Positions 2,285 to 30,494 of a DNA stretch of 34,771 bases are shown here, piece after piece. The stretch is from positions 1 through 34,771 of the forward strand of contig JAAOYF010000034.1 in assembly GCA_018221205.1 (NCBI GenBank). Direction: 5' to 3'. Position numbers and translations under genes: made by a program. The DNA comes from Candidatus Woesearchaeota archaeon. Lineage in GTDB: Archaea; Nanobdellota; Nanobdellia; Woesearchaeales; WJIZ01. The notes under the pieces were generated by a model. That model did not search any database. It was not told where the DNA came from and worked only from the letters and a program-made list of their open reading frames with translations. The first letter of the stretch is position 1. Every line of letters begins with the position of its first letter.

Positions 2285-2296
2285 AGTAGTAATCTC

Positions 2297-2683: not shown

Positions 2684-2708
2684 TTCTCTTCCTCTTTTTT
2701 ATGCTGTG

Positions 2709-2731
2709 TCAGAGATTCAAAGAATCTCTGA
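2709..2731. repeat. Perfect 10-bp hairpin TCAGAGATTC-AAA-GAATCTCTGA
   Basis: Read directly in the oapA-oapB spacer. Confidence 0.85.
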
Positions 2732-2756
2732 TCGCCAATAAAAAAGCTTTTGCTTT

Positions 2757-3389
2757 TTATGCTGCGTATTTGAATAACGCATTATAAAACTGATTGACGT
2801 TGTTGCCGTATTTTGCAGAGATGCCGATGACCTCATACTGTGGGAACGCACTCTGCACTTTTTTGATGTTTGACTTCTTAAGATCGACTTTATTCGCGAT
2901 AATCAGCAGCGGGATGTCTCTAGCCTGTAGATTGCCTATGATGGTGATATTGACTTGAGAATAAGGATCTATAGTAGAATCCAAGACAACGATGACCGTA
3001 TCCATCTCATCAAGCCATTTGATAGAATCAATGACACCTTTGGTGGCTTCTTTCGCTCTTATTTTGGCTTCTTTCTCCTTCATCCCACTTTTGAGAAACT
3101 CTTCATAATCAATCTTTGTCGCAATACCCGGAGTGTCCACCAGATTGAAGCTCAGTTCCTTCCCATCATCATTCTTGATGTTGATCTGCTCCTTGATCTG
3201 GATCTCTCTTGTTTCATGGGCAACATTACTGACACTGCCCATATCTTCACCAAGCCAATCCTGGCAGATTTTATTCGCCAGAGTAGTCTTGCCTCCATTC
3301 GGAGGACCATATAATCCCAATTTGAGGTGCTTTTTCTTCCGGAAGAGGTTTTTCAGAAGCTTATTGATTAATTTCTGTATAAATCCCAT
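2757..3389 (-). CDS. oapA: OapA/ArvA-type Era-like small GTPase
   Basis: G1 GPPNGGKTT, G3 DTPG, G4 NKVD, G5 SAK; family motifs HETRE, EATKGV and DPYSQVN; N-terminus looks amphipathic. Confidence 0.88.
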   Translation of the reverse strand: MGFIQKLINKLLKNLFRKKKHLKLGLYGPPNGGKTTLANKICQDWLGEDMGSVSNVAHETREIQIKEQINIKNDDGKELSFNLVDTPGIATKIDYEEFLKSGMKEKEAKIRAKEATKGVIDSIKWLDEMDTVIVVLDSTIDPYSQVNITIIGNLQARDIPLLIIANKVDLKKSNIKKVQSAFPQYEVIGISAKYGNNVNQFYNALFKYAA

Positions 3390-4821: not shown

Positions 4822-6342
4822 ATGTCCGTTAAAGGTCTCATTATCTCAGGCGAGTTTGGAAAAGTACTTGCTAGGCAGAAGTCCGATCAACCGTTAGAGA
4901 TAGGTGAGTTGTTGATAGGAGGGACAGAGAAAAAGATTCTTTTGCAGGTGACAGATCTTCTTTACGGCAGCCAAATTTCTCAGCAGAATCTGGAATTGAT
5001 CTCCGGAATAAGCTTAGAGGAAAACTCTCCAGTCGAATTCTTTGACCAAAACTTAAGAAATTATAGTCTCGCAGTATTGAAAAGCCTCATCACCATCAGC
5101 AAAGGCAAGTCAAAGCTCGCAAAAGAACTGCCGAAGTTCCTCTCAGAGATAAGAGAAGTGAAAAAAGAGGACCTTTCGTTCATAACCCAGCCTAAAAATC
5201 CTTTATACATCGGAAAGATGCGCTCTGGCTCAAAGACTCTTGATGTTGATATCTCCCTGCCCGGAAAAAAGGTGTTCTCTCACCATATCCTTATCCCAGC
5301 GACAACAGGAAGAGGCAAGTCTAATCTCACCTCCTGCATCTTATGGAACTGCTTGGATAAAGAGTATTGCGGCATTCTTGTCTTGGATCCTCATGACGAA
5401 TACTATGGGAGAAATGATCTAGGACTGAAGGACCATAAGGAAAAGGACTGCTTAACATATTACACCAACAATAATCCACCGCCCGGAACAAACTCATTGA
5501 GGATAAATCTCAACATCATCCGTCCAGGCCATTTCGAAGGTGTTGTCTATTGGTCTGATCCCCAAAGACAGGCACTGCATGCATACTATAAGAAATTCAA
5601 GGACAGATGGATCGAAGCCATCATCTTAGAGAAACCTTTAGATGTTTCTTTTATGGAAGGGACAATGGCAGTCGTCAAAAGAAGGCTATTGTCATTGCTG
5701 GATCTGGATTGGACCGGAGAGAGATTATTCTCGAACGGAATCTTCACCTTGAAAGGAGGAGAATCGACTGTTGCCGACATCTGCAATGATCTGGAGAGCG
5801 CAAAGACCGTTATCATAGACACATCCTCTTTTTCAGGAGAAGTCGAAATATTGATCGGATCATTGATCTCAACAGAGGTATTGAGAAGATACAAGAATTA
5901 TAAACTGAATGGAGATCTCGTTGACAAACCCGTCTTGAATATCATATTAGAAGAAGCGCCAAGAGTGTTAGGAAAAGACGTTTTGGAGAAAGGATCGAAC
6001 ATCTTCGCTACCATAGCAAGAGAGGGAAGAAAGTTCCAAGTCGGCTTGACAGCAATTACCCAATTGCCCTCTTTGATCCCAAGGCAGATTTTAGCAAATA
6101 TGAACACAAAGATAATCCTCGGCATAGAGATGGCCCCAGAAAGGCAGGCTATCATCGACTCAGCCAGCCAGGACATCTCAGATTCAGACCGGAATATAGC
6201 CAGTCTAGACATCGGAGAGGCCATCATAACATCTAATTTCTCACGTTTCGCAACTCCGGTGAAGATTCCTCTCTTCCAGGATCTCGTAAAATCATCCCAA
6301 CAGACGGATCTCAAGACTTCTTTCACAGGAATCAAAAAATAG
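4822..6342 (+). CDS. herA: HerA-family helicase/translocase (HAS barrel plus FtsK/HerA ATPase)
   Basis: Walker [16 protein letters not shown], Walker [17 protein letters not shown] and ITQLP; adjacent to mre11. Confidence 0.88.
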
Positions 6343-6415
6343 TCTCTTAAATATTTTCTATATTGAAAATAATAACACTGAAAACCTTTTATAGCATACA
6401 GTATTCCTGCTTTCT

Positions 6416-7594
6416 ATGAAATATGCCCATATCGCAGACTGCCATATCGGCGGCTGGCGCGATCCGCAATTATCCGATTTAAGCATCAAAGCATTTGAGT
6501 TGGCCATAGATAAGGTCATAGAAGAGAAAGTCGATTTTGTATTGCTCGCAGGAGACCTTTTCAACACTTCTTTACCAGCAGTCGACAAATTAAAAGAAGC
6601 GACAAGAAAATTAAAGCAGCTCAAAGACAATGATATTCCTGTCTACATGATTGCAGGCAGCCATGACTATTCTCCTTCAGGAAAGACCATGCTTGATGTC
6701 TTAGAAAATGCTGGCCTAGCAGTGAATGTCTGCAAAGGAGAGGAAAAAGACGGCAAACTCCATCTTAAGTTCACCATCGACAAGAAGACAGGTGCAAAGA
6801 TAACAGGCATTCTAGGAAGGATGGGCTCTTTGGATAAGAATTATTTTGAAAACTTGGCAAGAGAGCCGCTAGAAAAGGAGACAGGCTATAAGATATTCTT
6901 ATTTCACGCGTTATTGACAGAATTAAAGCCAAAAAATCTTGATAAAGTCGATTCCCATCCTCTGTCCTTGCTACCAAAGAATTTCAACTATTATGCAGGA
7001 GGCCATCCTCATTTCGTGCATAACGAGGACATGAAAGGATATGGCCGTGTGTGCTATACTGGCCCATTATTCCCGAATAGTTTTTCAGAGTTGGAAGAAC
7101 TGGGAAATGGAGGATTTTTCATAGTTGAAAACGATGAAGTGAAAAGAATCTCCATTAAGCTGTATGATGTCGAAAGGATCAGCATTGGCTGTAATCATGA
7201 TACTGCAGAGCAGGCAGAGGAAAAACTAAGAAAAGCCCTTGATAAAGATCTCAAAAGCAAGATAGTGACAATGAGGATGTCCGGAACATTAGAATCAGGA
7301 AAACCCTCTGATATCGACTTCAGGCAGCTCTTTACAGAAGCAAAAGCAAAAGGAGCATTCGCAATTCTAAGAAATACCTCTGCCTTGACATCAAAAGAAT
7401 TCGAAGAGATCAAAGTAGAACTCTCAAACCCAGAAGAAGTCGAAGAAAAGCTTATTGAGGAATATATCGATAAAGACTCTGTTTCTTTGACAAAAGAGCT
7501 GCTCAAGACACTAGACACCCAAAAGCAGGAAGGCGAGACAGTCTATGTCTTCGAAAAACGTTTAAAAGATGAAATTGATAGGATTCTAAGATAA
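6416..7594 (+). CDS. mre11: Mre11/SbcD DNA repair nuclease
   Basis: Phosphoesterase motifs DCHIG, GDLF, GSHD, FH and GHPH, followed by a capping domain. Confidence 0.88.
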   Translation: MKYAHIADCHIGGWRDPQLSDLSIKAFELAIDKVIEEKVDFVLLAGDLFNTSLPAVDKLKEATRKLKQLKDNDIPVYMIAGSHDYSPSGKTMLDVLENAGLAVNVCKGEEKDGKLHLKFTIDKKTGAKITGILGRMGSLDKNYFENLAREPLEKETGYKIFLFHALLTELKPKNLDKVDSHPLSLLPKNFNYYAGGHPHFVHNEDMKGYGRVCYTGPLFPNSFSELEELGNGGFFIVENDEVKRISIKLYDVERISIGCNHDTAEQAEEKLRKALDKDLKSKIVTMRMSGTLESGKPSDIDFRQLFTEAKAKGAFAILRNTSALTSKEFEEIKVELSNPEEVEEKLIEEYIDKDSVSLTKELLKTLDTQKQEGETVYVFEKRLKDEIDRILR

Positions 7595-9384: not shown

Positions 9385-10680
9385 TCATGGTTTATACCGT
9401 AGCATAGTCCGTGGAAAAGGAATAGCATCTTTGATGTTGTCAGAACCGCATAACCAGGCGATGACTCGTTCTATACCGACACCATAGCCAGAGTGAGGCA
9501 CGCTTCCATATTTTCGAAGATCAAAATACCATTCATAATTGCTGATATCCTCTCCTTCTTTCTTCAGATCCTTTTTCATCTCTTCAATATCAGTGCTTCT
9601 CTGACTTCCACCGATAATCTCCCCATGACCTTCAGGAGCGAGCATGTCAAAACAAAGCGCTTCTTCTTTGTTCTTGGGATCTCGAGGCTTGTAGAAAGCC
9701 ATGACCTCTTTTGGATAATGCGTAACGACAATTGGAGTATCGAAATGTTCCATGAGTTTATCTTCTTCAATTGTCCTGAGATCCTTCCCAAACTCGATCG
9801 CGAGCTTGGCTTTTTCTTTTAGAATCTTTATTGCTTCTTTATACTTGATAGTCGGCCATTTCTTCTCTGAAATCTTGATCAGTTTTTTTGGATCCCTGTT
9901 CAAAAGAGCAAATTCCTCAGCACACCTTTCAGCAGTCTGTTTCATGCAATATTTTATTTCCTTCTTCGCAAATTCAGTAACTTCAGTTAAATCAAACCAG
10001 GCAGCTTCCATCTCTGCCATCCAGAATTCAGATAGGTGCCTTGATGTCTTAGATTTTTCAGCTCTGAACGTCGGAGACATATTATATATTTTCTCCAAAG
10101 AAAAGACAGCTGCTTCAGCATAGAGCTGCCATGATTGCGCTAAATAGGTCTTATCTTTGTAATACTTTACTTCAAATAAAGTAGAGCCGCCTTCACACTG
10201 GTTGGGCTGAAGAATCGGCGCATCGAATCTGGTGAATCCTTCTTTCCGAAAGAATTCATCACGAGCCTGTACATAAGCACTCCTTATTTTCATGACAGCA
10301 GTTAATTTTCTGCTCCTGATCCAAAGATGCCTCTTATCGAGTAAAAACTCAGGTGATTGGTCTTTCGTAATGGGATAAGTATCACTCTCCCCGACAACAG
10401 CAAAGTCTGAAACAAGGATTTCATATCCAGTTGGGGCTCTTTTGTCTTCTTTTATCTCTCCGGTTATCTCCATCGAAGCTTCGATCTGGACTTTTTTGGC
10501 AATAAGAAATTTCTCCTCACCAACATCTTCTTTAGAAATAACACATTGGATGATATTTGAGCTGTCTCGGAGAACAATGAACTTCAGTTTATTCGAACCT
10601 CTCTCACGATACACCCAGCCTCTGACACTTACTTTGCCAGAGCCTTTTTTCATCGCTTCTTGTATACTAGTGAACTTCAT
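9385..10680 (-). CDS. asnS: Asparagine--tRNA ligase
   Basis: OB-fold N-terminus; CEGGSTLF, LAQSWQLY, FRAEKSKTSRHLSEFWMAEME and WYFDLRKYGSVPHSGYGVGIER. Confidence 0.9.
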   Translation of the reverse strand: MKFTSIQEAMKKGSGKVSVRGWVYRERGSNKLKFIVLRDSSNIIQCVISKEDVGEEKFLIAKKVQIEASMEITGEIKEDKRAPTGYEILVSDFAVVGESDTYPITKDQSPEFLLDKRHLWIRSRKLTAVMKIRSAYVQARDEFFRKEGFTRFDAPILQPNQCEGGSTLFEVKYYKDKTYLAQSWQLYAEAAVFSLEKIYNMSPTFRAEKSKTSRHLSEFWMAEMEAAWFDLTEVTEFAKKEIKYCMKQTAERCAEEFALLNRDPKKLIKISEKKWPTIKYKEAIKILKEKAKLAIEFGKDLRTIEEDKLMEHFDTPIVVTHYPKEVMAFYKPRDPKNKEEALCFDMLAPEGHGEIIGGSQRSTDIEEMKKDLKKEGEDISNYEWYFDLRKYGSVPHSGYGVGIERVIAWLCGSDNIKDAIPFPRTMLRYKP

Positions 10681-12383
10681 TTTAACCCCAATTCATCCAA
10701 CTGTTTCTTATCAACTGGTCCAGGACTGCCATCCATCGGACATTCTGCATTCTTATTTTTTGGAAAAGCAATCACTTCTCGGATATCATGGGTGCCGCAT
10801 AAAATTGCAACAAGTCGATCAAAGCCCAATCCCATACCTCCGTGGATAGGAGCGCCATACTTATAGGCCTCGAGCAAATAGCCGAATTTCTTCATAGCAA
10901 CCTCTTCTTTCAGGCCGATGATTTTCATCACTTTCTTCTGGATTGAAGTATCATGGATTCGGATCCCGCCTGACCCAAGTTCAGTGCCATTCAACACAAT
11001 ATCAAAGAGATTAGCCATGACTTTGCCAGGGTCCTTCTCCAACAAAGGAAGGTGCTCTTTTTTAGGCATCGAGAACATATGATGGCTCGGACTCCAACTT
11101 TTCTCATCTTCATCCCACTCAAAAAGAGGAAAATCAACAACCCAGCAGAATTTAAAGGAATCTTTCTTCCTCAATTCCAAAGAATCACCTAACTTTAATC
11201 GTAATTTACCAAGAACATCATTGACTGTCTCTTTTTTATCAGCGACAAACAATAAAACACCTTTCTTGCCGAGTTTAAGGAGGTCTTTCTCGATTCCTTT
11301 CATGAATTTAGCAATAGGCCCTTCAAGTTCTTTGCCTAATTTCAACCAAGCCAATCCTTTAGCACCTTCTTCTTTGGCAAATTTCTCTAAAGCTTCAATC
11401 TCCTTCCGGGAATAATCCTTCTCGACATGGATGCATTTCACCGTCTCTGCAGAAGTAAAGATCTTGAATTCACTTTTCTTAACTAAAGCAGTAACATCAA
11501 TAAGTTCCATTCCAAATCTAATATCTGGTTTGTCAGTGCCAAATCTATTCATCGCTTCTTCATAAGAAAAGACAGGAAATTGAGGATCAGCTTTCTTGCC
11601 TAATTTCTTCATGATATGCTTAAATAACCCTTCTACAAAATGCATGATCTCTTTTTCATCAACAAAACTCATCTCAAAATCCATCTGAGTATGCTCTGGC
11701 TGCCTGTCTTGCCGAAGATCTTCATCTCGCAAACAGCGGGCAAACTGATAATATCTATCCACTCCAGAGATCATCAGGATCTGCTTGTAGATTTGAGGAC
11801 TTTGAGGCAATGCATAGAACTTTCCTTTATTCACACGAGAAGGCACAACATAATCTCGCGCACCCTCAGGAGTGCTTCGAATAAGCAAAGGTGTTTCAAT
11901 CTCCAGAAATCCATGTGAATTAAAGAATTCACGGGCAGCCATTGAAGCATTATGCCGCAATTTAAGATTTCGTTGCATCTCTGGTTTGCGTAGATCAAGA
12001 TAACGATATTTCAAACGAGTCTCTTCAGTTGATTGCACATCTCCAAAGATTTCCATAGGCAGAGGAGCAGCTTTTCCAATCAAATCTAGACTATCGGCAA
12101 AAACCTCGATATCTCCAGTAGGGATATCTTTATTCACACTATGCCTCTTGGTGACCTTGCCAGAAATGGCAATCACATCTTCTCTATTAAGCTTAAGGGC
12201 ATGAGTATACATCTCTTTATTGTGCTGAGGATTAAAGACTATCTGGGTATGGCCCTCTCTATCCCGTAGATCAACAAAGATAAGGCCACCATGGTCTCTT
12301 CGTTTATGCATCCAACCCATCAAAGAAACAGTCTTGCCAGAATCCTTTCCCCTCAACGCATTGCAATCATGGCTTCTCTTCAT
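10677..12383 (-). CDS. aspS: Aspartate--tRNA ligase, bacterial type with GAD insertion
   Basis: RRDHGGLIFVDLRD, RLKYRYLDLR, STPEGARDY, ALPQSPQ, RFGTDKPDIRF plus a GAD-like insert, and GAPIHGGMGLGFDRL; 568 aa. Confidence 0.95.
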   Translation of the reverse strand: MKRSHDCNALRGKDSGKTVSLMGWMHKRRDHGGLIFVDLRDREGHTQIVFNPQHNKEMYTHALKLNREDVIAISGKVTKRHSVNKDIPTGDIEVFADSLDLIGKAAPLPMEIFGDVQSTEETRLKYRYLDLRKPEMQRNLKLRHNASMAAREFFNSHGFLEIETPLLIRSTPEGARDYVVPSRVNKGKFYALPQSPQIYKQILMISGVDRYYQFARCLRDEDLRQDRQPEHTQMDFEMSFVDEKEIMHFVEGLFKHIMKKLGKKADPQFPVFSYEEAMNRFGTDKPDIRFGMELIDVTALVKKSEFKIFTSAETVKCIHVEKDYSRKEIEALEKFAKEEGAKGLAWLKLGKELEGPIAKFMKGIEKDLLKLGKKGVLLFVADKKETVNDVLGKLRLKLGDSLELRKKDSFKFCWVVDFPLFEWDEDEKSWSPSHHMFSMPKKEHLPLLEKDPGKVMANLFDIVLNGTELGSGGIRIHDTSIQKKVMKIIGLKEEVAMKKFGYLLEAYKYGAPIHGGMGLGFDRLVAILCGTHDIREVIAFPKNKNAECPMDGSPGPVDKKQLDELGLK

Positions 12384-12832: not shown

Positions 12833-13528
12833 ATGACAAATGAACTCCTTTGGATCCTATTCTTAATATTCTCTTATCTGGGCATCATGCTGGTCTACAA
12901 GTTCTTTGGAAGAAGTGGATTGTATGCCTGGACAGCCATGGCAGTAATCGTAGCGAACATCCAGGTGATGAAGACCATAGAGATATTCGGCTTCGTCACT
13001 GCTCTAGGAAATATAATCTACGGCTCTACTTTCTTGGTAACAGACATCTTATGCGAGAACCATGGAAAAAAAGAAGGAAGAAAAGCAGTCCTCCTAGGAT
13101 TCTTCATATTAGTAGCAGTAACGATATTGATGCAGCTCTCCTTGATGTTCATACCCCATGAATCAGATATATTAAATCCGGCCTTGCAGCAGATCTTCGG
13201 CCTTCTGCCGAGGATAGCCATTGCTTCATTGTCAGCCTATCTAATCTCCCAGACCTTTGATGTTTGGCTCTATAATAAGATAAAAGAAGCGACAAAAGAG
13301 AAACACCTCTGGCTCAGGAACAATGCCTCAACAATGGCCTCTCAATTGATTGACAATCTTATCTTCACTTGGATCGCTTTTGTGGGCTTTGGAGTGTTCT
13401 GGCCGCAGCTCTTCGGATGGCCCATCATCATCTCCATTTTCTTCACCTCTTACGTGATGAAATGGATCGTCGCAATCTTAGATACTCCTTTCTTATATCT
13501 GGCAAGAAAAATGAAGAATGGCGCCTAA
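12833..13528 (+). CDS. yhhQ: Queuosine precursor transporter (YhhQ/COG1738, VUT family)
   Basis: Multi-TM protein with ANIQVMK, GNIIYGSTFLVTDILCE, ASLSAYLISQTFDV, LWLRNNASTMASQLID and DTPFLY. Confidence 0.9.
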   Translation: MTNELLWILFLIFSYLGIMLVYKFFGRSGLYAWTAMAVIVANIQVMKTIEIFGFVTALGNIIYGSTFLVTDILCENHGKKEGRKAVLLGFFILVAVTILMQLSLMFIPHESDILNPALQQIFGLLPRIAIASLSAYLISQTFDVWLYNKIKEATKEKHLWLRNNASTMASQLIDNLIFTWIAFVGFGVFWPQLFGWPIIISIFFTSYVMKWIVAILDTPFLYLARKMKNGA

Positions 13529-14132
13529 AAAAGACTATGAAGAAGAAGCTTTCAAGAAGATTCATGCGAAGTTCGGAAAAGCATCCCAGACACTGATCAA
13601 GGAATTTCATGAGCTCTATAGAAAAGTAGACAGCAAGAGCCGTTCTCATCTCTACTATGTTTCTTCGGAAAATTTCATCAAGGACTGTGCCAATATCATC
13701 GAAGAGTCATACAATCAAGGAAAATACCAGATAATCGTGACCTTTGATCTCCGCACGAGAGATCTTGCCTTCAATCTCAAGGATAGGGGCATTGATTTAG
13801 AAGAGTGGCTTCATTTTGTCGACTGTATTTCTTATGCGACAGGGCATGGCGCTCCTCCGGTATTCAACCTCTTCTGCCTCAACCAACCAGATGAGTTCGA
13901 GAACATCTTCTATTATACTATCATGCACCTGTTGAAGCTCTATCCTGAAAACACCACAGTATCAGTCATATCCCCCTCGACCTTCCTCAATTACTCAAAT
14001 TATAATGATGTCGGCGTCTTCTTCCATTGGTTCATCGAGAAGCTGAACGAGCGCGGCATAAACGTCAATCTTTTATACAGGGAAGATGCAGACAATATTC
14101 TGCATGATATTCTGCAGAGAGAAGTAGGATGA
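13518..14132 (+). CDS. Hypothetical protein, probable inactive RecA/KaiC-like fold (paralogue 1)
   Basis: Overlaps the yhhQ stop; IIVTF...LKDRGID...LHFVDCIS pattern with no Walker A; clearly similar to the next ORF. Confidence 0.6.
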   Translation: MAPKKDYEEEAFKKIHAKFGKASQTLIKEFHELYRKVDSKSRSHLYYVSSENFIKDCANIIEESYNQGKYQIIVTFDLRTRDLAFNLKDRGIDLEEWLHFVDCISYATGHGAPPVFNLFCLNQPDEFENIFYYTIMHLLKLYPENTTVSVISPSTFLNYSNYNDVGVFFHWFIEKLNERGINVNLLYREDADNILHDILQREVG

Positions 14133-14782
14133 TAGACGATGCTGAATTGAGGGTTGAGAAAAGGCTAGTTGATAAGATAATCAAGAAAGTAGGCACGCTC
14201 TCGGAAGAATGGCAGGGCAATGTCCATGGATTCTTCAGGAAATACGCAGTAAGAGAACTGCCCAAGATCTTCATGGTCGATGAATATAACCTTGTACAGG
14301 AAGCTGCAGACGTCGCCGTCGAGATGCTCGCAAGCAACGATAAGGTGCTCATCATTACCTTCAATACCGAAACACGGGATTTAGTGGACAACATAAGCAA
14401 AGCAGGCGTTGAGACCGATGACAGGGTCTTTGTCATCGACACCATGTCCATCAAACAAGGCTACGGCACCCCTCCAGTAAAAAACCTCTACTGCATCAAT
14501 AACCCTACTGATTTCGATGAGATATTCGTCTATGCAAACCTCCTGATGGAAAGGATGAAAGGCTCAACAATAACAGCAATCATGGTCGCCCCCCATGAAT
14601 TGATGAAGCTGACTGATTTCTATGGCATGAAGACAGATTATAACGATGTCGGCATCTTCATCCAGTGGTTCTTTGACAGGCTTGCAGAAAGAGACATACC
14701 TTTGATGTTTGTCTATCCAAAGACAGGAGATAGGATTCTTGCTGAGATGATAAAAAGATTGGTGGATAAACAGGCAGAATAA
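14129..14782 (+). CDS. Hypothetical protein, probable inactive RecA/KaiC-like fold (paralogue 2)
   Basis: ATGA overlap with paralogue 1; shares G.PPV.NL.C.N.P..F..IF.Y and YNDVG.F..WF...L.ER.I with it. Confidence 0.6.
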   Translation: MIDDAELRVEKRLVDKIIKKVGTLSEEWQGNVHGFFRKYAVRELPKIFMVDEYNLVQEAADVAVEMLASNDKVLIITFNTETRDLVDNISKAGVETDDRVFVIDTMSIKQGYGTPPVKNLYCINNPTDFDEIFVYANLLMERMKGSTITAIMVAPHELMKLTDFYGMKTDYNDVGIFIQWFFDRLAERDIPLMFVYPKTGDRILAEMIKRLVDKQAE

Positions 14783-14784
14783 GT

Positions 14785-15081
14785 CTAGCTTTGCCAGGCA
14801 GGCATCTTCTTCATATACTCCTCAGCCAGTTTCTCAGCTTCTTCATCTGATTCCACTCTTTCGCCCATGACAGTGATGGCATCAGGGCTGAAGAATAATT
14901 TCTTGATATGCTGCTTTACTTCCTCTTTATCTTTGTAGCTGCCGTCAGGCTTGCAGCAATCTTTGCAGCGGGCATTATGAGGATCTCCTCCACCACAATC
15001 AGAAGGCTTCATAAGTCGTATGCCACAGCTTTCACAGTACTTGAACGCCGGTGCTTCTCCCTTCCTTTCTACATCAGCCAT
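14785..15081 (-). CDS. Stand-alone putative zinc-ribbon protein (Zn_ribbon_2-like)
   Basis: YCESCGIRL...CKDCC..DGSY and terminal MPAW; overlaps the 3' end of tgt by 13 nt. Confidence 0.7.
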   Translation of the reverse strand: MADVERKGEAPAFKYCESCGIRLMKPSDCGGGDPHNARCKDCCKPDGSYKDKEEVKQHIKKLFFSPDAITVMGERVESDEEAEKLAEEYMKKMPAWQS

Positions 15082-16256
15082 TTTTTCTTCATTTGCTTAA
15101 ACGTTCCTTCTTTTATACTTTTTCTTATGGAATCAAGCAAGTGCAGCATGAAATAGACATTATGATATGAAGCCAGTCTGAAATAACTTAATTCATTGAC
15201 CGTATAAAGATGCCGCAAGTAAGCCCGGGAATAATTCTTGCATACCATACAGCTGCAACCAGGGTCTATGGGCTTTGTATCTCCCTTGAAACGAGCACTT
15301 TTGATATTGATTCTGAATTTATTCTTAAAGCGACCTCCATTGCGAGGAGAGATATACACGCTTCCTCGGCGTGCATTTCGCGTTACCGAAACACAATCAA
15401 AAGTATCAATCCCGCGAGAGACACATTCAAAGATATCATCGATCTCTCCGATGCCAAGAAGATGCCGGGGACGGTCATCCAATAACGGAATGACCCATTC
15501 AAGGATCTGATGCATATCCTTTTTGCTCTTCCCTAAGCTGCCACCGATCGCGATTCCCTTAAAACCAAGATTATTGATAAAGGCAGCACTTTCAACACGA
15601 AGATCCCTGAACCAACCACCCTGGACAATTCCGTATAATGCTTGTTTCTTATCATGATATTTCAAAGAGTCCTTTGCCCATCGATGAGTCCTCTCCAAGG
15701 CCTTTGAAGTATAGGCCTTATCAGAAAGAGGACTGGTACATTCATCAAAAGCCATGATCACATCACTCCCAAGAACACTTTGGATCTGCATACTTTTCTT
15801 TGCATCCATAAAGTGCCACGTCCCATCATACACGCTTTGGAACTTGACCCCCTTACCAGTCACTTTGGCCATCTTTTTCTTGGTCGGCAATACACGTCTG
15901 CCTTCCGGAAAGATGCTGCCTAATTTATTGATATTATGTTCCATCCCAAAGCCCAGAGAAAAGGCCTGAAACCCCCCAGAATCAGAGAAAAGAGGTTTAT
16001 CAAAATGCATGAAGCCCCGTACACCGTTAAATTTCTTCAATACTTCCTCACCAGGTCGAAGATAAAGATGATAGGTATTAGCAAGACTGCATTGAGCTCC
16101 CAATGCATGGAGATCATCAGAATCCAGTGCCCTGACACTTCCCAGTGTAGCAACAGGAATCAAATAAGGCGTCTCTATCTTTCCATGCGTTGTAGAAATA
16201 ACACCAGTTCGTGCTTTTCCTTCTTTTTTAAGGATCTTGAAAGAAAACATTTTCAC
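15069..16256 (-). CDS. tgt: Bacterial-type tRNA-guanine(34) transglycosylase (queuine/preQ1-inserting)
   Basis: ANTYHLYLRPG, DSGGFQ, FDEC, GIVQGG, RHLLGIG, DTFDCV and Zn site CSCMVC...HN; no C-terminal PUA region. GTG start at 16256 (alternative ATG at 16250). Confidence 0.93.
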   Translation of the reverse strand: MKMFSFKILKKEGKARTGVISTTHGKIETPYLIPVATLGSVRALDSDDLHALGAQCSLANTYHLYLRPGEEVLKKFNGVRGFMHFDKPLFSDSGGFQAFSLGFGMEHNINKLGSIFPEGRRVLPTKKKMAKVTGKGVKFQSVYDGTWHFMDAKKSMQIQSVLGSDVIMAFDECTSPLSDKAYTSKALERTHRWAKDSLKYHDKKQALYGIVQGGWFRDLRVESAAFINNLGFKGIAIGGSLGKSKKDMHQILEWVIPLLDDRPRHLLGIGEIDDIFECVSRGIDTFDCVSVTRNARRGSVYISPRNGGRFKNKFRINIKSARFKGDTKPIDPGCSCMVCKNYSRAYLRHLYTVNELSYFRLASYHNVYFMLHLLDSIRKSIKEGTFKQMKKKWLM

Positions 16257-16822
16257 ACTTTGTCTTTCATCTTCAGTTGAAAGACAAGATCATCTAACTT
16301 TCGGATATCGTATTTGATGCCATCATATTTCCGTCTTAGTTCTCCATTGCGGAAATCAAATTTTGACAGCTCAATATACATCTGCTCCAGAAACTTCCTG
16401 ATCTTCACAGCCATCGGATAATTCTCTTTGATGCATGAATTGATGGCCTTCCTTACTAATTCCCCAGAGAGATCGCATAATCCCATCAGATAGAACTCAG
16501 GATCCTCAAATTCCTCAGAATAAACTAAGAATTTATCATTCTTAACAAACTCATATAAGCTTAATGCTTCGACATATTCCTGGATCGCGACTTTGAAGAT
16601 ACCTTCATGCTGCAGTTTTCCTTTTGATTCTTTCTTCAAGCCCGCAACATCTTCCTTCATCTGTTTAAGGACAGCAGCAGCCTCAGGAAGCGTATCCCTA
16701 TGGATAGAGCCGATAGCTGTTTTGGATTTCTGGATAATCTTTCTGCTGGAACGGATGACTTTCTCCCGTTTCTTGTCATAGCTACTAAATTTTTTCCGTA
16801 TCTGCTCAAGGTTGATTTTCAT
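16253..16822 (-). CDS. Translin/Trax (C3PO-like) family protein
   Basis: Start moved to ATG 16822 (MKINLEQ), with a TATA box about 23 nt upstream; REKVIRSSR, QEYVEA, YLMGLCDLSGELVR and LRRKYD motifs. Confidence 0.85.
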   Translation of the reverse strand: MKINLEQIRKKFSSYDKKREKVIRSSRKIIQKSKTAIGSIHRDTLPEAAAVLKQMKEDVAGLKKESKGKLQHEGIFKVAIQEYVEALSLYEFVKNDKFLVYSEEFEDPEFYLMGLCDLSGELVRKAINSCIKENYPMAVKIRKFLEQMYIELSKFDFRNGELRRKYDGIKYDIRKLDDLVFQLKMKDKV

Positions 16823-16844
16823 AGTGTGAAAGAACAAAGAGGCC

Positions 16845-16903: not shown

Positions 16904-17485
16904 ATGGCAGATGAAAGTAGGTTTCGAGCTATAATTGACTTTTTTGATGCTGTCGGCTTGTTTGATGTAGTTCTTCCGTTCATTCTGGTCTTCACTATTG
17001 TCTTCGCCATATTGGAAAAGACAAAGGTGCTGGGCACAGAAGAGATATCTGGCAAGCATTACACCAGAAAGAACCTTAATGCGATGGTAGCATTCGTCAT
17101 GGCATTCTTGGTGATAGCTTCATCTAGGCTGGTCGAGATCATAACAACAGTTTCCTCACAGATATTCATACTTCTATTGTTATCAGTACTCTTCCTTTTG
17201 TTGGTAGGCTCTTTTTACCAGGATGCAGAAGGCGGCTATCTGAAAGGTGGCTGGAAGACCTTCTTTATGGGATTGATGTTTCTTGGCATCGTCTTCATAT
17301 TTCTGGGAGCTATCGAAAATGATGACGGCGATACCATGTTAGATGTATTTTGGGACTGGGCCAAGGGCTCAGGTGATGAGACCACGATCGTGGGCTCTGT
17401 CGTATTGCTGATCGTATTGATCTTGGCCATCATGTACATGGTCAAAGATCCAAATCATACTGTAGAGAAGAAAGAAAAGAAATGA
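16904..17485 (+). CDS. Multi-pass membrane protein (paralogue 1)
   Basis: About 5 hydrophobic segments; LPFILVFTIVFAILEKTKVLG motif. Confidence 0.8.
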   Translation: MADESRFRAIIDFFDAVGLFDVVLPFILVFTIVFAILEKTKVLGTEEISGKHYTRKNLNAMVAFVMAFLVIASSRLVEIITTVSSQIFILLLLSVLFLLLVGSFYQDAEGGYLKGGWKTFFMGLMFLGIVFIFLGAIENDDGDTMLDVFWDWAKGSGDETTIVGSVVLLIVLILAIMYMVKDPNHTVEKKEKK

Positions 17486-17494
17486 GGTGTTATA

Positions 17495-18088
17495 ATGGCA
17501 AATAGAAATTTTTTCCTTGAGGATTTCCTTCGATCATTGGACAGTTGGGGAATAACAGACATTCTCCTTCCCTTCCTGCTGGTATTTGTTATAGTATTCG
17601 CAGTATTGGAGAAAACCTCTGTCTTAGGACAAGGCAAGAAAAATTTTAACGTGATATTTGCCCTCATACTTGGTTTTGCAGTGGTCATTCCTCACTCGAC
17701 CAGTTCCTATCCTATCAGCTTTGACCCTGTAGACATCATCAACGCAGCCCTTCCACAGGTCTCTATCTTGGTAGTGGCGATCATGATGCTCCTTGTTCTC
17801 ATAGGAGTCTTTGCTCATGACAAGGTCTTTCTCGGCTTGGCCATGCCTGGCTGGATCGGTTTCTTTTCTATCATCTCAATCATCTACATCTTCGGCAATG
17901 CAGCTGGTTTCTGGGGAGCAGGTGGTTTGCAGGCATTTTTAGGAGAAGACATCGTAGCCATAGTGGTCATGATATTGGTGTTCGGCCTGATCATCGCATT
18001 TATCACATCCAGCAAGGATGATACAAAGAGTGCCCTTGAACGAGGAGGAATAGCCTTTAAGCAGCTCTTCGGCGGCGGCAAGCATTAA
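17495..18088 (+). CDS. Multi-pass membrane protein (paralogue 2)
   Basis: LPFLLVFVIVFAVLEKTSVLG motif; GAGGTG SD upstream. Confidence 0.8.
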   Translation: MANRNFFLEDFLRSLDSWGITDILLPFLLVFVIVFAVLEKTSVLGQGKKNFNVIFALILGFAVVIPHSTSSYPISFDPVDIINAALPQVSILVVAIMMLLVLIGVFAHDKVFLGLAMPGWIGFFSIISIIYIFGNAAGFWGAGGLQAFLGEDIVAIVVMILVFGLIIAFITSSKDDTKSALERGGIAFKQLFGGGKH

Positions 18089-18090
18089 AA

Positions 18091-18612
18091 ATGGCCACAT
18101 TCTTTGATTTGACAGGCTTGGAAGCGTTTTCAAAGGTCTTCATCTTTATTTTAGTAGTCATATCCATATATGCAATCCTTCACTTCTCAAAATTCGGCAG
18201 GATATCATGGTTGCCATGGTTAGTGGCATTAGTGATGGGGTTGTTCGTCATCATGTCGGATCTCGCGACTGGATTGATAAAGGCACTCATTCCTTGGGGC
18301 GCTGTCCTCTTCCTCTTCCTCGTATTTTCGATGACTGCCTCTCAGATGTTCGGTGCTGCACCCGCAGACTGGGCACAGTTTAAATGGGTGTTATACATTA
18401 TCGTGATCCTTATCCTATTTATCAGCACCATGTTCTATTTCAGAGAGAATACCGTCGTTCCTGGAGATATCGATGAAGACCAGGACGAATTGAAAGAAGC
18501 CAGTTATTTCACATCAGGAAATTTCTTCTTGCATCCAAATTTCCTTGCCTTGATGTTCATCCTGCTGGTGGGGATATTCACTGTCGCGCTGCTGGCAGGA
18601 AAGTCTATTTAG
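18091..18612 (+). CDS. Multi-pass membrane protein (divergent paralogue 3)
   Basis: FIFILVVISIYAILHFSK matches the same N-terminal motif; similar TM layout. Confidence 0.75.
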   Translation: MATFFDLTGLEAFSKVFIFILVVISIYAILHFSKFGRISWLPWLVALVMGLFVIMSDLATGLIKALIPWGAVLFLFLVFSMTASQMFGAAPADWAQFKWVLYIIVILILFISTMFYFRENTVVPGDIDEDQDELKEASYFTSGNFFLHPNFLALMFILLVGIFTVALLAGKSI

Positions 18613-19903: not shown

Positions 19904-20041
19904 ATGAAAAGACCAATATCCGCCACAATAGATGAAGAACTCATTGATTGGATAGCGAAGCAGCTGAAAGATAAGACCAAGTACCGAAATAAATCTCACC
20001 TTATTGAGATCGCTTTAGAAAAGCTGAAGAAGGAAAAATGA
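19904..20041 (+). CDS. Ribbon-helix-helix (CopG/MetJ/Arc-like) DNA-binding protein, 45 aa
   Basis: Hand translation: MKRPISATIDEELIDWIAKQLKDKTKYRNKSHLIEIALEKLKKEK*; ATGA overlap with the ATPase start. Confidence 0.82.
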   Translation: MKRPISATIDEELIDWIAKQLKDKTKYRNKSHLIEIALEKLKKEK

Positions 20042-22317
20042 AAGAGCCCTTTTCATATAAAACCATAAGGCAAGGAGAAGATTCTGTCTTGCAGATAGAC
20101 TGTGAGCAATATATCAGGCTTCCCTCTATCGAAGATGATCCCATGACCATGTCAAGGGCCATCGACATACTCACCAAAGAACGGAATGTGACGAAGATAG
20201 TCTTCCAGCAGAAGAGGGATTATGAATATGATTTCGAGCAGACCTCTCTGTTGAGAGAGGTCGCCGCATTATATGTCAAGCTCATAAAATCAAAAGACCT
20301 CTTGAGTTTCAGGACTTTAGACTATCAGAAATGCGAACGGTTCATCGGAGGCTGGTATGCTGAACTAAGAAATATAGTCTCACACATATTGAAGACAGAT
20401 CCGGCAGGCGCCTATGTCGAGCTGAAGAGGATCCATAGGAGAGAATCAATAAAATTAGACAAATATGCTGATGAGACAGCATCGGCGTGTGTGAAAGGCT
20501 ATCTGGATATCCTGACAAGGATCATTGAGATGTTCGAAAAGACCAAATTCATAGCTACAATAAAACAATATTCAGCAGGCCACAAGCCAGGTGACAGAGA
20601 AGTCTACCAGCGCATCTTCAGAGCGACCATCAAGCCAGATTTCATGTTCACCAAGCTGATGGCGACCTATCCCCCAGAAGGAGAGGAATTAGATAACTAC
20701 GAACTGCCGGATGGTTCTGAAGTAACAATTTTTGAACTCCCTGATACGGTCCAATATCTCTATCACATAACCCCTCCGGAATTTCGGTTGGATGAAGACC
20801 AATATGAAATACTGGATACTGCAAGGAAAGTCATGGCAGAGCACAAGCCAAAGCGTTCTGATTTTGTCGATCCAGAAAGGATAAGGCAGGTCTTCCAGAA
20901 TGTAGGAAAGGATTTGATAGAAGAGCTGGCAGGCTACAAGAATATAAGGCTCAAAGATAAGGAAATTACGATGCTAACCAGTATCTTGGTGAGATACACC
21001 ATCGGCTTCGGTTTGATCGAAGTCCTCATGCAGGATGAGAAGATCCAGGACGTGACGATCAATTCCCCGATGGGTGAGATTCCTATGTTCATCGTCCATC
21101 AGGATTTTGGAGACTGCAAGACCAATGTCATCCCCACCGAGCCTGAATCTGAAAGCTGGGCTTCAAAATTAAGGCTCATCTCCGGCCGCCCATTAGACGA
21201 GGCCAATCCCATATTGGATACAGAGCTTTCCCTCCCAGGAGCTTCTGTCAGGGTCGCAGTCATCGCTTCTCCATTGAATCCTACTGGGTTAGCGTATGCC
21301 TTCAGGAGGCATCGTGACCGTCCTTGGACCCTTCCTCTCTTCATAAAGCAGAAGATGCTTGACCCATTGTCAGCAGGAATCTTGAGCTTCTTGATAGATG
21401 GATCAAGGACAATGTTGATAGCAGGAACAAGATCAGCAGGAAAGACCTCTTTATTGAGTGCAGTCATGGTCGAAGTCATGAGAAGAGGAAGGATGATCAC
21501 CATAGAAGATACGTTAGAGCTCCCAGTCTCCTCATTAAGAAAACTTGGTTTTAATATCCAATCCATGAAAGTCGCTTCTGCCATGTCCCATGGAACAGCA
21601 GAAGTCCCTGCTGATGAAGGCATCCGTACAACGCTAAGATTAGGAGATTCAGGATTGATAATCGGAGAAGTAAGGTCTACCGAAGCAAAAGCATTATACG
21701 AATCCATGCGTATCGGCGCTCAGGCAAACATAGTGGCCGGAACAATCCACGCCGACTCCCCTTATGGAGTATTCGATAGGGTGACAAATGATCTGGGCGT
21801 GCCTAAAACATCCTTCAAAGCCACTGATGTCATCGTCGTAGCAAACCCCATAAGGTCTCCAGATGGCATCCATCGATGGAGACGGGTAACACAGATAACT
21901 GAAGTCCGCAAGCAATGGGAGAACGATCCCATGCTGGAGCAGGGCTTTGTTGATCTGATGCGTTATTCCCCGAAAGAAGATACTCTCAAGCCTTCAGATG
22001 AGCTGATAAATGGTGATTCAGAGGTCCTGAAGGCAATCGCTGGCAATGTGAAGGAATGGGCCGGCAACTGGGACGCGATCTGGGAAAATATCCTCATGAG
22101 GGCGAAGATAAAGGAATCGATAGTCAAATATTCCGAAAAGCATAAACGCCCTGATCTATTGGAAGCAGAGTTCGTCATATTGGCAAATGATGAGTTCCAT
22201 AAGATCTCAGACAGGGTTGCAGAGAGGACAGGCTCTTTAGATGCGAAGAAGATATTCTTCGAATGGGAAGAGTGGCTCAAGCGCAGGCTCAAGAAAGACA
22301 GGTTTAAAGCCCAATAA
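20038..22317 (+). CDS. Type II/IV secretion (VirB11/CpaF/ArlI-like) ATPase with long N-terminal extension
   Basis: Walker A GTRSAGKT, TIEDTLEL, Walker B IIGEVRS and His box GTIHADS. Confidence 0.9.
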   Translation: MKEPFSYKTIRQGEDSVLQIDCEQYIRLPSIEDDPMTMSRAIDILTKERNVTKIVFQQKRDYEYDFEQTSLLREVAALYVKLIKSKDLLSFRTLDYQKCERFIGGWYAELRNIVSHILKTDPAGAYVELKRIHRRESIKLDKYADETASACVKGYLDILTRIIEMFEKTKFIATIKQYSAGHKPGDREVYQRIFRATIKPDFMFTKLMATYPPEGEELDNYELPDGSEVTIFELPDTVQYLYHITPPEFRLDEDQYEILDTARKVMAEHKPKRSDFVDPERIRQVFQNVGKDLIEELAGYKNIRLKDKEITMLTSILVRYTIGFGLIEVLMQDEKIQDVTINSPMGEIPMFIVHQDFGDCKTNVIPTEPESESWASKLRLISGRPLDEANPILDTELSLPGASVRVAVIASPLNPTGLAYAFRRHRDRPWTLPLFIKQKMLDPLSAGILSFLIDGSRTMLIAGTRSAGKTSLLSAVMVEVMRRGRMITIEDTLELPVSSLRKLGFNIQSMKVASAMSHGTAEVPADEGIRTTLRLGDSGLIIGEVRSTEAKALYESMRIGAQANIVAGTIHADSPYGVFDRVTNDLGVPKTSFKATDVIVVANPIRSPDGIHRWRRVTQITEVRKQWENDPMLEQGFVDLMRYSPKEDTLKPSDELINGDSEVLKAIAGNVKEWAGNWDAIWENILMRAKIKESIVKYSEKHKRPDLLEAEFVILANDEFHKISDRVAERTGSLDAKKIFFEWEEWLKRRLKKDRFKAQ

Positions 22318-25993: not shown

Positions 25994-27106
25994 ATGACGA
26001 AAACGAAAAGGGAAGTAGTGGAAAATTTCCTTTTGCAGAAATATAAAGATGTAATTAAGCCACTTCGCACACCTCATAAAGAGATTATTCATCCGTTCAA
26101 AGATGGAAGTTTTGGAGTGAGCATATCAGCGTATGCTATGTATGCCAACGGCTGGAACCCCCGAGGAACAAGTTCCTATTTTGGAGGATTATTGTACCAT
26201 GACGAAGAAACAATCTTTGCTATCGGATATTATAGAAAAAAATCAGATCCAGAAGATGATGATGGATATCTCTTTATTGTTGGCCCAAGAGGAGAAGAAT
26301 CAACTAAAAGGGTGGATGAGCTATCGTCTTTACTACTAGAATCCGATGTTCCATGTAAAGGGGTGTATGTACGATTCTTGACCGTAGAGCAATATGGTAA
26401 TTTATTGCAGCAGGGGTTTCTTCCAGCAAAAGAATCTCCCTGGCATCCAGAATCAGCAGAGGAAGATGAACAATATGGCAATGCATTGGTTTCGCTTGAC
26501 TCTTTACTAGAATTAAACGGAGACGAATTGCTCATCCGACCAGAACATCCTGATTTACGGAGACAATATAATAGGTTCGCCAACTTTCTTGAGAGGAATA
26601 TGATAGAGTACACATTCGAAAACGATCCATTGCCGGGATTCTTCCATAATACGATCACAAGATGGTATGATTTGGTGAAAGATCATTTTAAGTGGCTTAC
26701 AAAAGAGGAAAAGGAATTTGGATCATATCCCGAAGATTACAAAAATCTTATGTATGTTACGCGACACGTCGAAAATGGGTTTAGTTTGTTGGGACGTTTA
26801 AGAGATAGGCCAGTCTCTGTGTTCGTAGGGGAACCATTATCCGATACGCGAATAGGGCTATATGCTTCAATCAGTTTAAGAGATGTTGAGGACTTAGTTA
26901 GAAGAGCTGGATTGTTTCCAGATAGAACCATGGGAATTACTGCTCTGCCGACATTTGCCTTGGTTGAATTATTCAAATTACTGAAAAAGGAGGGCTTCAC
27001 GGAAGTCCATTTAGGCGGTTCTGAAACAGCAGCTATGAATAAATATAAAAGAAGATTAGGAGCAAAGAATATGCCGAGCTATTGGGCAGTAAAATTAAGA
27101 AATTAA
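25994..27106 (+). CDS. Hypothetical protein, probable tandem GNAT fold (DUF2156/Fem/MprF C-terminal-like)
   Basis: Start ATG 25994 after an AGTGA SD. The C-terminal KEGFTEVHLGGSETAAMNKYKRRLG resembles the end of Fem/DUF2156 domains. Confidence 0.55.
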   Translation: MTKTKREVVENFLLQKYKDVIKPLRTPHKEIIHPFKDGSFGVSISAYAMYANGWNPRGTSSYFGGLLYHDEETIFAIGYYRKKSDPEDDDGYLFIVGPRGEESTKRVDELSSLLLESDVPCKGVYVRFLTVEQYGNLLQQGFLPAKESPWHPESAEEDEQYGNALVSLDSLLELNGDELLIRPEHPDLRRQYNRFANFLERNMIEYTFENDPLPGFFHNTITRWYDLVKDHFKWLTKEEKEFGSYPEDYKNLMYVTRHVENGFSLLGRLRDRPVSVFVGEPLSDTRIGLYASISLRDVEDLVRRAGLFPDRTMGITALPTFALVELFKLLKKEGFTEVHLGGSETAAMNKYKRRLGAKNMPSYWAVKLRN

Positions 27107-27915
27107 ACCAACGGTATCTTACCGCCATAAAGCGCTTTAAACTTCTTCCCATCAAATTCAAGAGTGAAGATATCGTTGTTGCAAGACGTGCTTCTCATCT
27201 TAATAACACTGATCTCTCGAGTAACTTTTCGATTCCTTTCAGTAAGCTGCAGATGTATGATGCCATCGGCCAGATAACTCTCGATATCCAGCCGGGTATA
27301 GGAGTTGTCTGCACTTTCCTCTGAGATGATAAAAGCTGAGATGCCCAAATCGCGTAAATATTCAAACAGATAGAAGATGTCGCTTCTCGGATCTTCCATC
27401 TTAGTCAATGAATAGAGGGCAGTGAGTGAGTCGATGATGATTATATCACAAAGGTCTTTCTGGACAAGGGTCTGTGCCATGGTCAATATGCTGGTGATCA
27501 TGCCTGGTCCGAATTCATATTCATTTTTTACCTTCCCTTTTACTTTTTTCCGCAATTCTTTCCTTATGCTGCCGAAATCAATAAGGGTTAATTTGTTCGG
27601 ATCACCACTTTTCAGTCTGCTCAGTCCCTTGATGACATCATTTGCATCATTGAGGACTTCGATATTTATCTTCGATATGTCAAATCCAAGACTGACGACC
27701 TGACGCAGCAAGCTCAAAGAGCTCTGTTCGATCGAGATATAGACACCTTTCTTTCCACTCAATATCTCATTATAGAGGATATTGAAACAGAGACTGCTCT
27801 TCATCGTTCCTGCGCTGCCATGGATGATGACAATATTCTCAGCAGGGATGCCTCCGCCTAACGCATGATCAAAACCGTCGATATAGGACTCTACAACATT
27901 GCGTTTCGCCATCAT
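27103..27915 (-). CDS. Single-domain KaiC-like (RecA-superfamily) ATPase
   Basis: IDGFDHALGGGIP, Walker A GSAGTMKSS, Walker B IIIIDS, YLADGII and VIKMRST. Confidence 0.87.
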   Translation of the reverse strand: MMAKRNVVESYIDGFDHALGGGIPAENIVIIHGSAGTMKSSLCFNILYNEILSGKKGVYISIEQSSLSLLRQVVSLGFDISKINIEVLNDANDVIKGLSRLKSGDPNKLTLIDFGSIRKELRKKVKGKVKNEYEFGPGMITSILTMAQTLVQKDLCDIIIIDSLTALYSLTKMEDPRSDIFYLFEYLRDLGISAFIISEESADNSYTRLDIESYLADGIIHLQLTERNRKVTREISVIKMRSTSCNNDIFTLEFDGKKFKALYGGKIPLV

Positions 27916-28124
27916 TTCACCTTCTGCTTCTTAGAGATCAGCCTCAGATTGAAAAAATTCAATTTCAGGTTCAATATACCATGTTTCTCCAAGAAATCAG
28001 CCCATTCCTCGATCTGTCTTTCCTTCAGGCCAAGGATCTTTGCTGCTTCTTTAGCAGATATCTTTCCCTTTGTATCCACTAACGAAATTAATCTGTCAGC
28101 TTCAGTCTGGATTATTGGGCTCAT
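27912..28124 (-). CDS. Small winged-helix protein
   Basis: ISAKEAAKILGLKERQIEEWADFLEKHGIL; ATGA overlap with the KaiC-like gene. Confidence 0.7.
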   Translation of the reverse strand: MSPIIQTEADRLISLVDTKGKISAKEAAKILGLKERQIEEWADFLEKHGILNLKLNFFNLRLISKKQKVK

Positions 28125-28150
28125 GCTTTTCTATTCCATTACCTACACTT

Positions 28151-28651
28151 TTAAATCTTTTGTAATTCAGGCTTTCCCTCAGGAGTGATGATTTTCATGA
28201 TTTTGTTGACTTTCTCTTCTTCCTGCTTCATCATCTCATTTATCTTGATCATGTTCTCCACACTGATCTCAACTAAGAGGTGATAGAGCAGCCTGATGAA
28301 GTCCCGTACAAGGTCGACGAGCATTCCTTCATTGGGGAATCCAGAGTTATGCAGAACTCTTTCGATGAAATCTTTGTGTTCTGCATCCAGTTCTTGGCTT
28401 ATCTTCTCTCCCAGATCATGGAGAAAGTGTTCTTCTTCATCCCACGCGTTGAGCCCGATGAACTGATAATGTTCGTCTAAAGCTTTAAGCTGCATCCTGA
28501 TAAGGCTTCTGAGGTTCTCAAGGACCAACCCACGTAATTGGAATTTTCTCTGTTCAAATATCCTCTGTTTGAGTTTACATACCTTCTTTAAAGCATACAG
28601 CTCTTTCATCTCTTCGTACAGCTGCCCATTCCACACTCCTTCGATGACCAT
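28151..28651 (-). CDS. Hypothetical helical protein
   Basis: Co-oriented and 1 nt from the upstream stop; 166 aa. Confidence 0.65.
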   Translation of the reverse strand: MVIEGVWNGQLYEEMKELYALKKVCKLKQRIFEQRKFQLRGLVLENLRSLIRMQLKALDEHYQFIGLNAWDEEEHFLHDLGEKISQELDAEHKDFIERVLHNSGFPNEGMLVDLVRDFIRLLYHLLVEISVENMIKINEMMKQEEEKVNKIMKIITPEGKPELQKI

Positions 28652-28652
28652 C

Positions 28653-30493: not shown

Positions 30494-30494
30494 G

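Follow-up and report, generated by a model that had tools for sequence, protein, structure and literature searches.

A short-loop tRNA-guanine transglycosylase of a woesearchaeal genome as a candidate for direct queuine salvage in archaea

Queuosine (Q) has been described for bacteria and eukaryotes, with archaeosine as its archaeal counterpart (PMC8204110). The window analysed here, i.e. the whole stretch of 34,771 nucleotides of contig JAAOYF010000034.1 from a Candidatus Woesearchaeota archaeon, encodes a bacterial-type tRNA-guanine(34) transglycosylase (TGT) with a short GGSLG pocket loop. The question raised by this locus, and its main interest, is whether an archaeal host employs a TGT of the queuine-salvage type. 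The direct-salvage route and the GGSLG signature are already published for bacteria, as is the combination of QueA, QueH and TGT for DPANN archaea. In PMC8204110 a complete or partial Q pathway is reported for 34 archaeal genomes, with co-localised QueA, QueH and Tgt in DPANN; the passages of that paper on these genes describe neither a QueA-less route of TGT and a queuosine-precursor transporter (QPTR) nor the pocket residues. In a search that lay largely outside subscription journals, and which also drew on PMC10275265, no paper was found on a QueA-less archaeal clade of short-loop TGTs or reporting Q measured in tRNA of archaea.

The tgt gene (15069..16256, minus strand) is an open reading frame of 395 residues when read from a GTG codon. 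The public record of 393 residues fits an ATG at 16250, which is the probable start. The protein scores 466.9 bits against the bacterial-type model TIGR00430 (cut-off 306.75), but only 121 bits against the archaeosine model TIGR00432 (cut-off 350), and it is too short for the C1, C2 and PUA domains of archaeosine TGTs. An AlphaFold model (mean pLDDT 81.6) matched Z. mobilis TGT in Foldseek with a TM score of 0.84, confirming the TGT fold. Its closest named homologues are from Woesearchaeota and Nanoarchaeota (69–70% identity). Alignments with PDB sequences place Asp92 of the DSGGFQ motif (15981..15983) at Z. mobilis Asp102, Asp171 and Cys173 of the FDEC motif (Asp171-Glu172-Cys173, 15738..15746) at Asp156 and Cys158, Gln212 at Gln203, and Asp287 of the DTFDC motif (15396..15398) at the nucleophile Asp280, all codons lying on the minus strand. 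The zinc site (Cys334, Cys336, Cys339 and His365; 15162..15257, minus strand) is invariant in 33 aligned homologues. Thr292, Arg293 and Arg296 correspond to Thr285, Arg286 and Arg289 of Z. mobilis TGT, residues which we take to act in anticodon recognition. With its fold, catalytic residues, zinc site and model score the protein thus resembles the canonical TGTs of Z. mobilis and E. coli. It differs from them in the pocket loop described below, in having Glu at the position of Lys264, and in carrying about 25 additional residues behind DSGGFQ (15873..15950, minus strand), an insertion which appears as a gap in Z. mobilis and E. coli-type TGTs. This insertion is typical of the clade of the window TGT, in which the segment after DSGGFQ has a median length of 45 residues versus 19; in the model, residues 96–125 of this region have a pLDDT below 50.

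The GGSLG loop comprises residues 238–242 (15531..15545, minus strand) within the sequence IAIGGSLGKSK. It is one residue shorter than the GGLAVGE loop of Z. mobilis TGT, and lacks the Val233-Gly-Glu235 end, GGSLG being followed by Lys without a counterpart of Glu235. Two statements of the initial annotation could be verified at this point: that GGSLG stands where preQ1-specific enzymes have GGL[AS]VGE, which is borne out by the translation of the reading frame and by alignment, and that the catalytic Asp motifs, FDEC and the zinc site are intact, as all of these residues were found in the PDB alignments. The loop is not a chance variant, since 119 of the 120 closest homologues share it; 117 of the 120 also have FDECT or LDECT, and so keep the equivalent of Cys158. 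The register at the Val233 position is ambiguous in these sequence comparisons, as HMMER alignment sets Leu241 opposite Val233 of wild-type Z. mobilis TGT, but Gly242 opposite Gly233 of its V233G mutant. Under the register used in the literature, Gly occupies the Val233 position as in eukaryotic QTRT1; unlike the window TGT, QTRT1 has Val in place of Cys158 and requires QTRT2 (PMC5699537), and a second TGT-family gene was not found in the window genome.

Studies of Z. mobilis TGT indicate how these positions may influence the substrate. The V233G mutation enlarged the pocket without conferring use of queuine, C158V reduced the affinity for preQ1, and Glu235 supports the preQ1 peptide flip (PMC3660597). 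Of the features of canonical preQ1-specific enzymes, the window TGT has Cys158 but not the Val233/Glu235 loop. Because Cys173 is kept, we consider it probable, from the sequence, that preQ1 is also accepted. The typical signature given for queuine-salvaging TGTs is GG[LS][AS]G (PMC11570991), to which GGSLG does not strictly conform. The same GGSLG motif is, however, described for the TGT of Anaplasma phagocytophilum, which likewise has tgt without QueA; this enzyme, set beside the window TGT by its description, was modelled with a clearance of 4.0 A from queuine, and its use of queuine is a prediction from modelling only (PMC11570991, Fig. S1).

The initial annotation had identified the short loop as the form found in Chlamydia trachomatis, whose TGT inserts queuine and belongs to a group with equivalents of Gly233 and Leu158 (PMC12301720). 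A search from a GGSLG/DEL representative yielded 119 further chlamydial-type proteins, in which the Chlamydiota-named members are proteins of metagenome-assembled genomes (MAGs), with no named C. trachomatis entry. GGS[LMVI]G was present in 118 of these 119 proteins, including GGS[LM]G in all seven Chlamydiota-named TGTs, and Leu occupied the Cys158 position in 117. The window TGT shares 34–39% identity with them, and the loops align column for column. Compared through these MAG proteins and through descriptions of C. trachomatis TGT with YhhQ and of the chlamydial BL-TGT group (PMC11570991, PMC12301720, PMC11130926), the window TGT shares the one-residue-shorter GGS[LM]G loop, the LLGIG motif, the insertion after DSGGFQ, the QPTR partner and the absence of QueA, QueG and QueH. 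Unlike that group it has Cys rather than Leu at the 158-equivalent position, DTFDC rather than DTFDS, and an archaeal host with intron-containing tRNAs. In a FastTree phylogeny of 132 sequences (loop columns removed, long-loop TGTs subsampled) the chlamydial group has a support of 1.0 and excludes the window TGT. The assignment thus stands as regards the loop of the Chlamydiota-named MAG group, but does not extend to the remainder of the pocket or to the branch. Judged by loop and gene content, the window TGT and its QPTR appear to work like the chlamydial direct-salvage pair, from outside the chlamydial clade.

The window genome (1.28 Mb in 74 contigs, 94.78% complete) contains a single TGT-family gene. 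Searches in this genome, with matched positive controls for each family, did not find QueA, QueG, QueH, QueD, QueF, QueC, a nucleoside hydrolase or the ECF-type S-component PF12822. Two weak QueC matches were rejected, being read as asparagine-synthase-like and NAD-synthase-like proteins, and in the search for Qng1 even the control genomes gave no match. Since the search for a nucleoside hydrolase gave nothing, the host must have access to free queuine. The QueL route needs QueA downstream. The gene content is thus that of direct salvage, with tgt and a transporter present and QueA, QueG and QueH not found. Tyr, His and probably Asn tRNAs with GUN anticodons, the substrates of a G34 TGT, could be read from the sequence: tRNA-His(GUG) at C59:18966-19039, tRNA-Tyr(GUA) at C64:32024-32146 and a probable two-intron tRNA-Asn(GUU) at C74:13881-13984. 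tRNA-Asp(GUC) was not found in this genome. Many of its tRNA genes bear introns, some apparently at non-canonical or at two positions (C74:13881-13984, C60:151-324, C63:38515-38654), which misled ARAGORN into Pyl and SeC calls. Together with the origin-associated genes of the window and the named homologues of the TGT, the genome size and the tRNA introns suggest a Woesearchaeota-like DPANN host.

The likely partner of tgt in the window is a yhhQ gene of the QPTR family (12833..13528, plus strand; TIGR00697, 234 bits). It lies 1.54 kb from tgt in convergent orientation, and the opposite strands and three intervening open reading frames rule out an operon of the two genes. The initial annotation had presented TGT and a YhhQ as a two-gene salvage route dispensing with QueA and QueG, and had suggested checking for the absence of queA. 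Neither gene was found in the genome, and yhhQ lies nearby, though not in a shared transcription unit. There are two QPTR genes in the genome, the second on contig C11. In a tree of 38 QPTR sequences the QPTR of the window and that of the closest relative, G146, are sisters, and the former groups with QPTRs encoded beside GGSLG TGTs; the sister group of this group includes QPTRs encoded near queA or queH.

The other neighbours of tgt show no comparable association. A zinc-ribbon gene (14785..15081, minus strand; PF12674) overlaps the stop codon of tgt, and also adjoins tgt in G146. Between yhhQ and the zinc-ribbon gene lie two paralogues of unknown function, of 204 and 217 residues (13518-14132 and 14129-14782, both plus strand), with a mutual identity of 29% (E 3e-38) and in one of them a weak match to DUF7090; no such genes were found near tgt in other loci of the order. 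Immediately upstream of tgt, and in the same orientation, is a translin-family gene (16253..16837, minus strand; PF01997). Translin occurs within 1.5 kb of tgt in 10 of 109 loci of the order, the window included, where it adjoins six GGSLG and four long-loop TGTs, and a role as a dedicated TGT partner is unsupported. None of the five neighbouring genes tested is common to most of the 26 loci with a GGS[LM]G loop (translin in 6/26, zinc ribbon in 2/26); only QPTR recurs. Beside yhhQ are also asnS and a bacterial-type aspS with a GAD domain (9385..12383, minus strand; NF003037 and NF001750, over cut-off), encoding synthetases for two of the tRNAs with GUN anticodons. In 31 of the 109 loci, 30 of these being of the long-loop type, tgt has an aspS-related class II synthetase gene at a distance of up to 1.5 kb.

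The distribution of the loop across the order was examined in a sample of 151 genomes, in which the tallies include three unpublished genomes that do not singly carry any of the conclusions. TIGR00430 proteins were found in 111 genomes, QueA in 36, QueH in 37 (35 over the cut-off), QPTR in 57 (55 over the cut-off), QueC in two (none over the cut-off) and QueF in three. Pocket classes could be assigned from 109 TGT sequences, which represent 107 of the 111 genomes after exclusion of the three unpublished ones and of one split gene; one sequence is a fragment without the loop. The GGS[LM]G class (n = 26) co-occurs with QueA in no genome, with QueH in one and with QPTR in 22, and in 14 of the 26 no more than 2 kb separates the gene for QPTR from tgt. 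The pattern is the same in the 18 high-quality genomes with this loop (QueA in none, QPTR in 15). The long-loop class is the commoner type of the order (74/109) and forms a separate clade, characterized by a loop of the GGL-x-[IL]-GE type, DxFDS and, in most members, Met or Val in place of Cys158; it co-occurs with QueA in 29 and with QPTR in 26 genomes. The difference in QueA between these two classes has a Fisher p of 3e-5, in a comparison in which related genomes are not independent. Bacterial-type TGTs in Woesearchaeota are also known from the QueA-QueH-Tgt clusters of DPANN (PMC8204110), but the QueA-paired TGTs of the order sample are of the long-loop (29) or Phe-loop (5) type, and never GGS[LM]G.

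In a FastTree phylogeny of 146 TGT sequences (loop columns removed, six short sequences dropped and canonical bacterial sequences subsampled) the TGTs with a GGS[LM]G loop fall into one clade with a support of 0.986, inside which the short Phe-loop forms are found. This last class (n = 8) co-occurs with QueA in five genomes and with QPTR in none. The Phe loops GG[AS]FG and GS[LI]FG with QueA and without QPTR were observed in G033, G043, G055, G112 and G123 (L059, L039, L064, L030 and L034), and it is possible that the Phe-loop forms represent a return to the preQ1 route. One genome (G073, C20; L011, L081) has a GGSLG and a long-loop TGT on one contig and no QueA, at an estimated contamination of 6%.

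Short-loop TGTs are not confined to this order. In a scan covering 3 of the 64 parts of GTDB, the best 80 of 600 matches include GGSLG enzymes from genomes titled Woesearchaeota, Pacearchaeota, Methanothrix, Archaeoglobi and Thermoplasmatales, and from bacteria titled Saccharibacteria, Parcubacteria and a few others; the titles are labels given by the depositors, and two of the titled loci are duplicates of sequences in the order sample. Geoglobus, Archaeoglobus and Methanothrix, which appear in the titles of carriers, are genera with cultured members. For 32 of the best 80 genomes, whose completeness is not stated, QueA was searched for, and it was found in 1 of 16 carriers of GGS[LV]G versus 9 of 10 canonical controls, the exception being one titled GGSLG carrier, G153. 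It was not found in the single carrier of a GGALD form. A related TGT form, with a GGE[ST][IV]GY loop (L120, L127, L140, L153 and L166, titled mostly Patescibacteria), was accompanied by QueA in 5/5 genomes. In all seven euryarchaeal carriers tested, QueC is present, so that preQ0 is made, and there is a longer TGT-family gene in addition to the short-loop one. This speaks against an import of preQ0 and against a role of the short-loop enzyme at G15.

We propose, with a probability of roughly 60%, that the window TGT and its YhhQ/QPTR serve direct queuine salvage, with insertion at the wobble position of those tRNAs that have GUN anticodons. In this route QPTR would import free queuine, and TGT would remove G34 from the spliced tRNAs through a covalent intermediate at Asp287. 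The short loop would open the pocket so that queuine fits, and queuine would be inserted directly to give Q34 as the product, with no need for QueA, QueG or QueH. Queuine as the substrate is thus a prediction. It is favoured because the GGS[LM]G clade pairs with QPTR (22/26) and not with QueA (0/26), and because the loop is common to chlamydial-type TGTs and has no counterpart of Glu235. Counting against it, the Cys158-equivalent favours preQ1 and V233G alone gave no queuine insertion. Also, the enzyme is on a separate branch at 34–39% identity to the chlamydial type, with Leu241 at Val233 in one alignment, and the absence of QueA is common in the order in any case (45 of the 74 TGTs with a long loop). 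Finally, a GGSLG carrier with QueA exists, and tRNA-Asp(GUC) and a nucleoside hydrolase were not found in the window genome. The prediction of direct queuine insertion from the loop, as made in the initial annotation, thus gains from the chlamydial-type loop, the Anaplasma prediction and the missing QueA, and is weakened by the retained Cys, the insufficiency of V233G and the Bartonella exception discussed below.

As the main alternative, imported preQ1 (or preQ0) might instead be inserted at G34 and the base left unfinished, as in Bartonella henselae, whose TGT prefers preQ1 despite the absence of QueA (PMC11570991). The absence of QueA was a wrong predictor of queuine use in this organism (PMC11570991) and in B. 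breve. B. henselae has tgt and QPTR without QueA, QueG and QueH, as does the window genome. The retained Cys and the many other QueA-less TGTs of the order point the same way, as do the co-occurrence of the closely derived Phe-loop forms with QueA and the position of the window QPTR next to a group encoded near queA or queH. We nevertheless regard this explanation as rather unlikely, since B. henselae TGT keeps the loop GGLAVG, unlike the window TGT with its chlamydial-type loop and no Glu235, and since QueA accompanies 0/26 GGS[LM]G as opposed to 29/74 long-loop TGTs, albeit among kin that are not independent. The distinct clade with its 25-residue insertion, and the combination of Cys with a short loop, a pocket uncharacterised in the literature covered, might also suit another 7-deazaguanine (e.g. 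the archaeosine base) or a route in which an unknown enzyme other than QueA completes the conversion of preQ1. The neighbourhood speaks against this improbable alternative, as none of the tested genes except QPTR recurs in most of the 26 loci.

The absence of QueA and QueH could in principle stem from the assembly, which is fragmented, 94.78% complete and devoid of some tRNAs, and a genome of the same family (G023) has QueA. The TGT of G023 is of the long-loop type, however, and QueA was found in none of the 18 high-quality GGS[LM]G genomes, while a window tgt that is no longer active is at odds with its intact frame and residues; we hold missing genes or an inactive enzyme to be very unlikely. 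Least credible is a replacement of the missing archaeosine TGT with action on G15. Such a role might be expected of the sole TGT in an archaeal genome, but the protein is far below the TIGR00432 cut-off, lacks the length for the C-terminal domains and matches Z. mobilis at Thr285, Arg286 and Arg289, and in euryarchaeal carriers a longer TGT-family gene is retained as a separate gene.

Extending the reading of direct queuine salvage beyond the window, we tentatively propose that a clade of short-loop TGTs centred on archaea and served by dedicated QPTRs (in Woesearchaeota, Pacearchaeota, Archaeoglobi, Methanothrix, Thermoplasmatales and some bacteria) salvages queuine of bacterial origin as a micronutrient, placing Q34 on archaeal tRNA by means of a Cys-retaining pocket unlike those of the chlamydial and eukaryotic enzymes. 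A single change from Leu to Phe in the loop might switch members back to the QueA route. If true, queuine would be to archaea, as it is to eukaryotes, a micronutrient obtained by scavenging, which would point to their depending on bacteria in metabolism. Natural variants of the pocket are also available in the clade (loops with Leu or Met in the absence of QueA, Phe loops often accompanied by QueA, and Cys kept). They bear on the question of which features let a TGT accept queuine, left unanswered by mutants of Z. mobilis TGT (PMC3660597). With cultured genera among the titled carriers, direct salvage in archaea is testable.

Several other features of the window were observed. A scan for sigma-70 promoters, a model unsuited to archaea, gave 8 sites versus 10.4 expected, i.e. 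chance level. An archaeal origin-associated cluster (OapC, OapB and a GTPase) is located beside an Obg-like GTPase (699-3389), and is followed by HerA and a metallophosphoesterase (4822-7594). Three tandem genes for membrane proteins (16904-18612) have no Pfam match, and the first of these recurs near tgt and translin in four other loci of the order. Genes for two type II/IV secretion ATPases and a KaiC-like ATPase, along with two T2SSF membrane genes (20038-22317 and 27103-32504), probably constitute a type IV pilus-like locus. Near the end of the window (33288-34361) a protein with a laminin-G/concanavalin A-like lectin domain (PF13385) is encoded.
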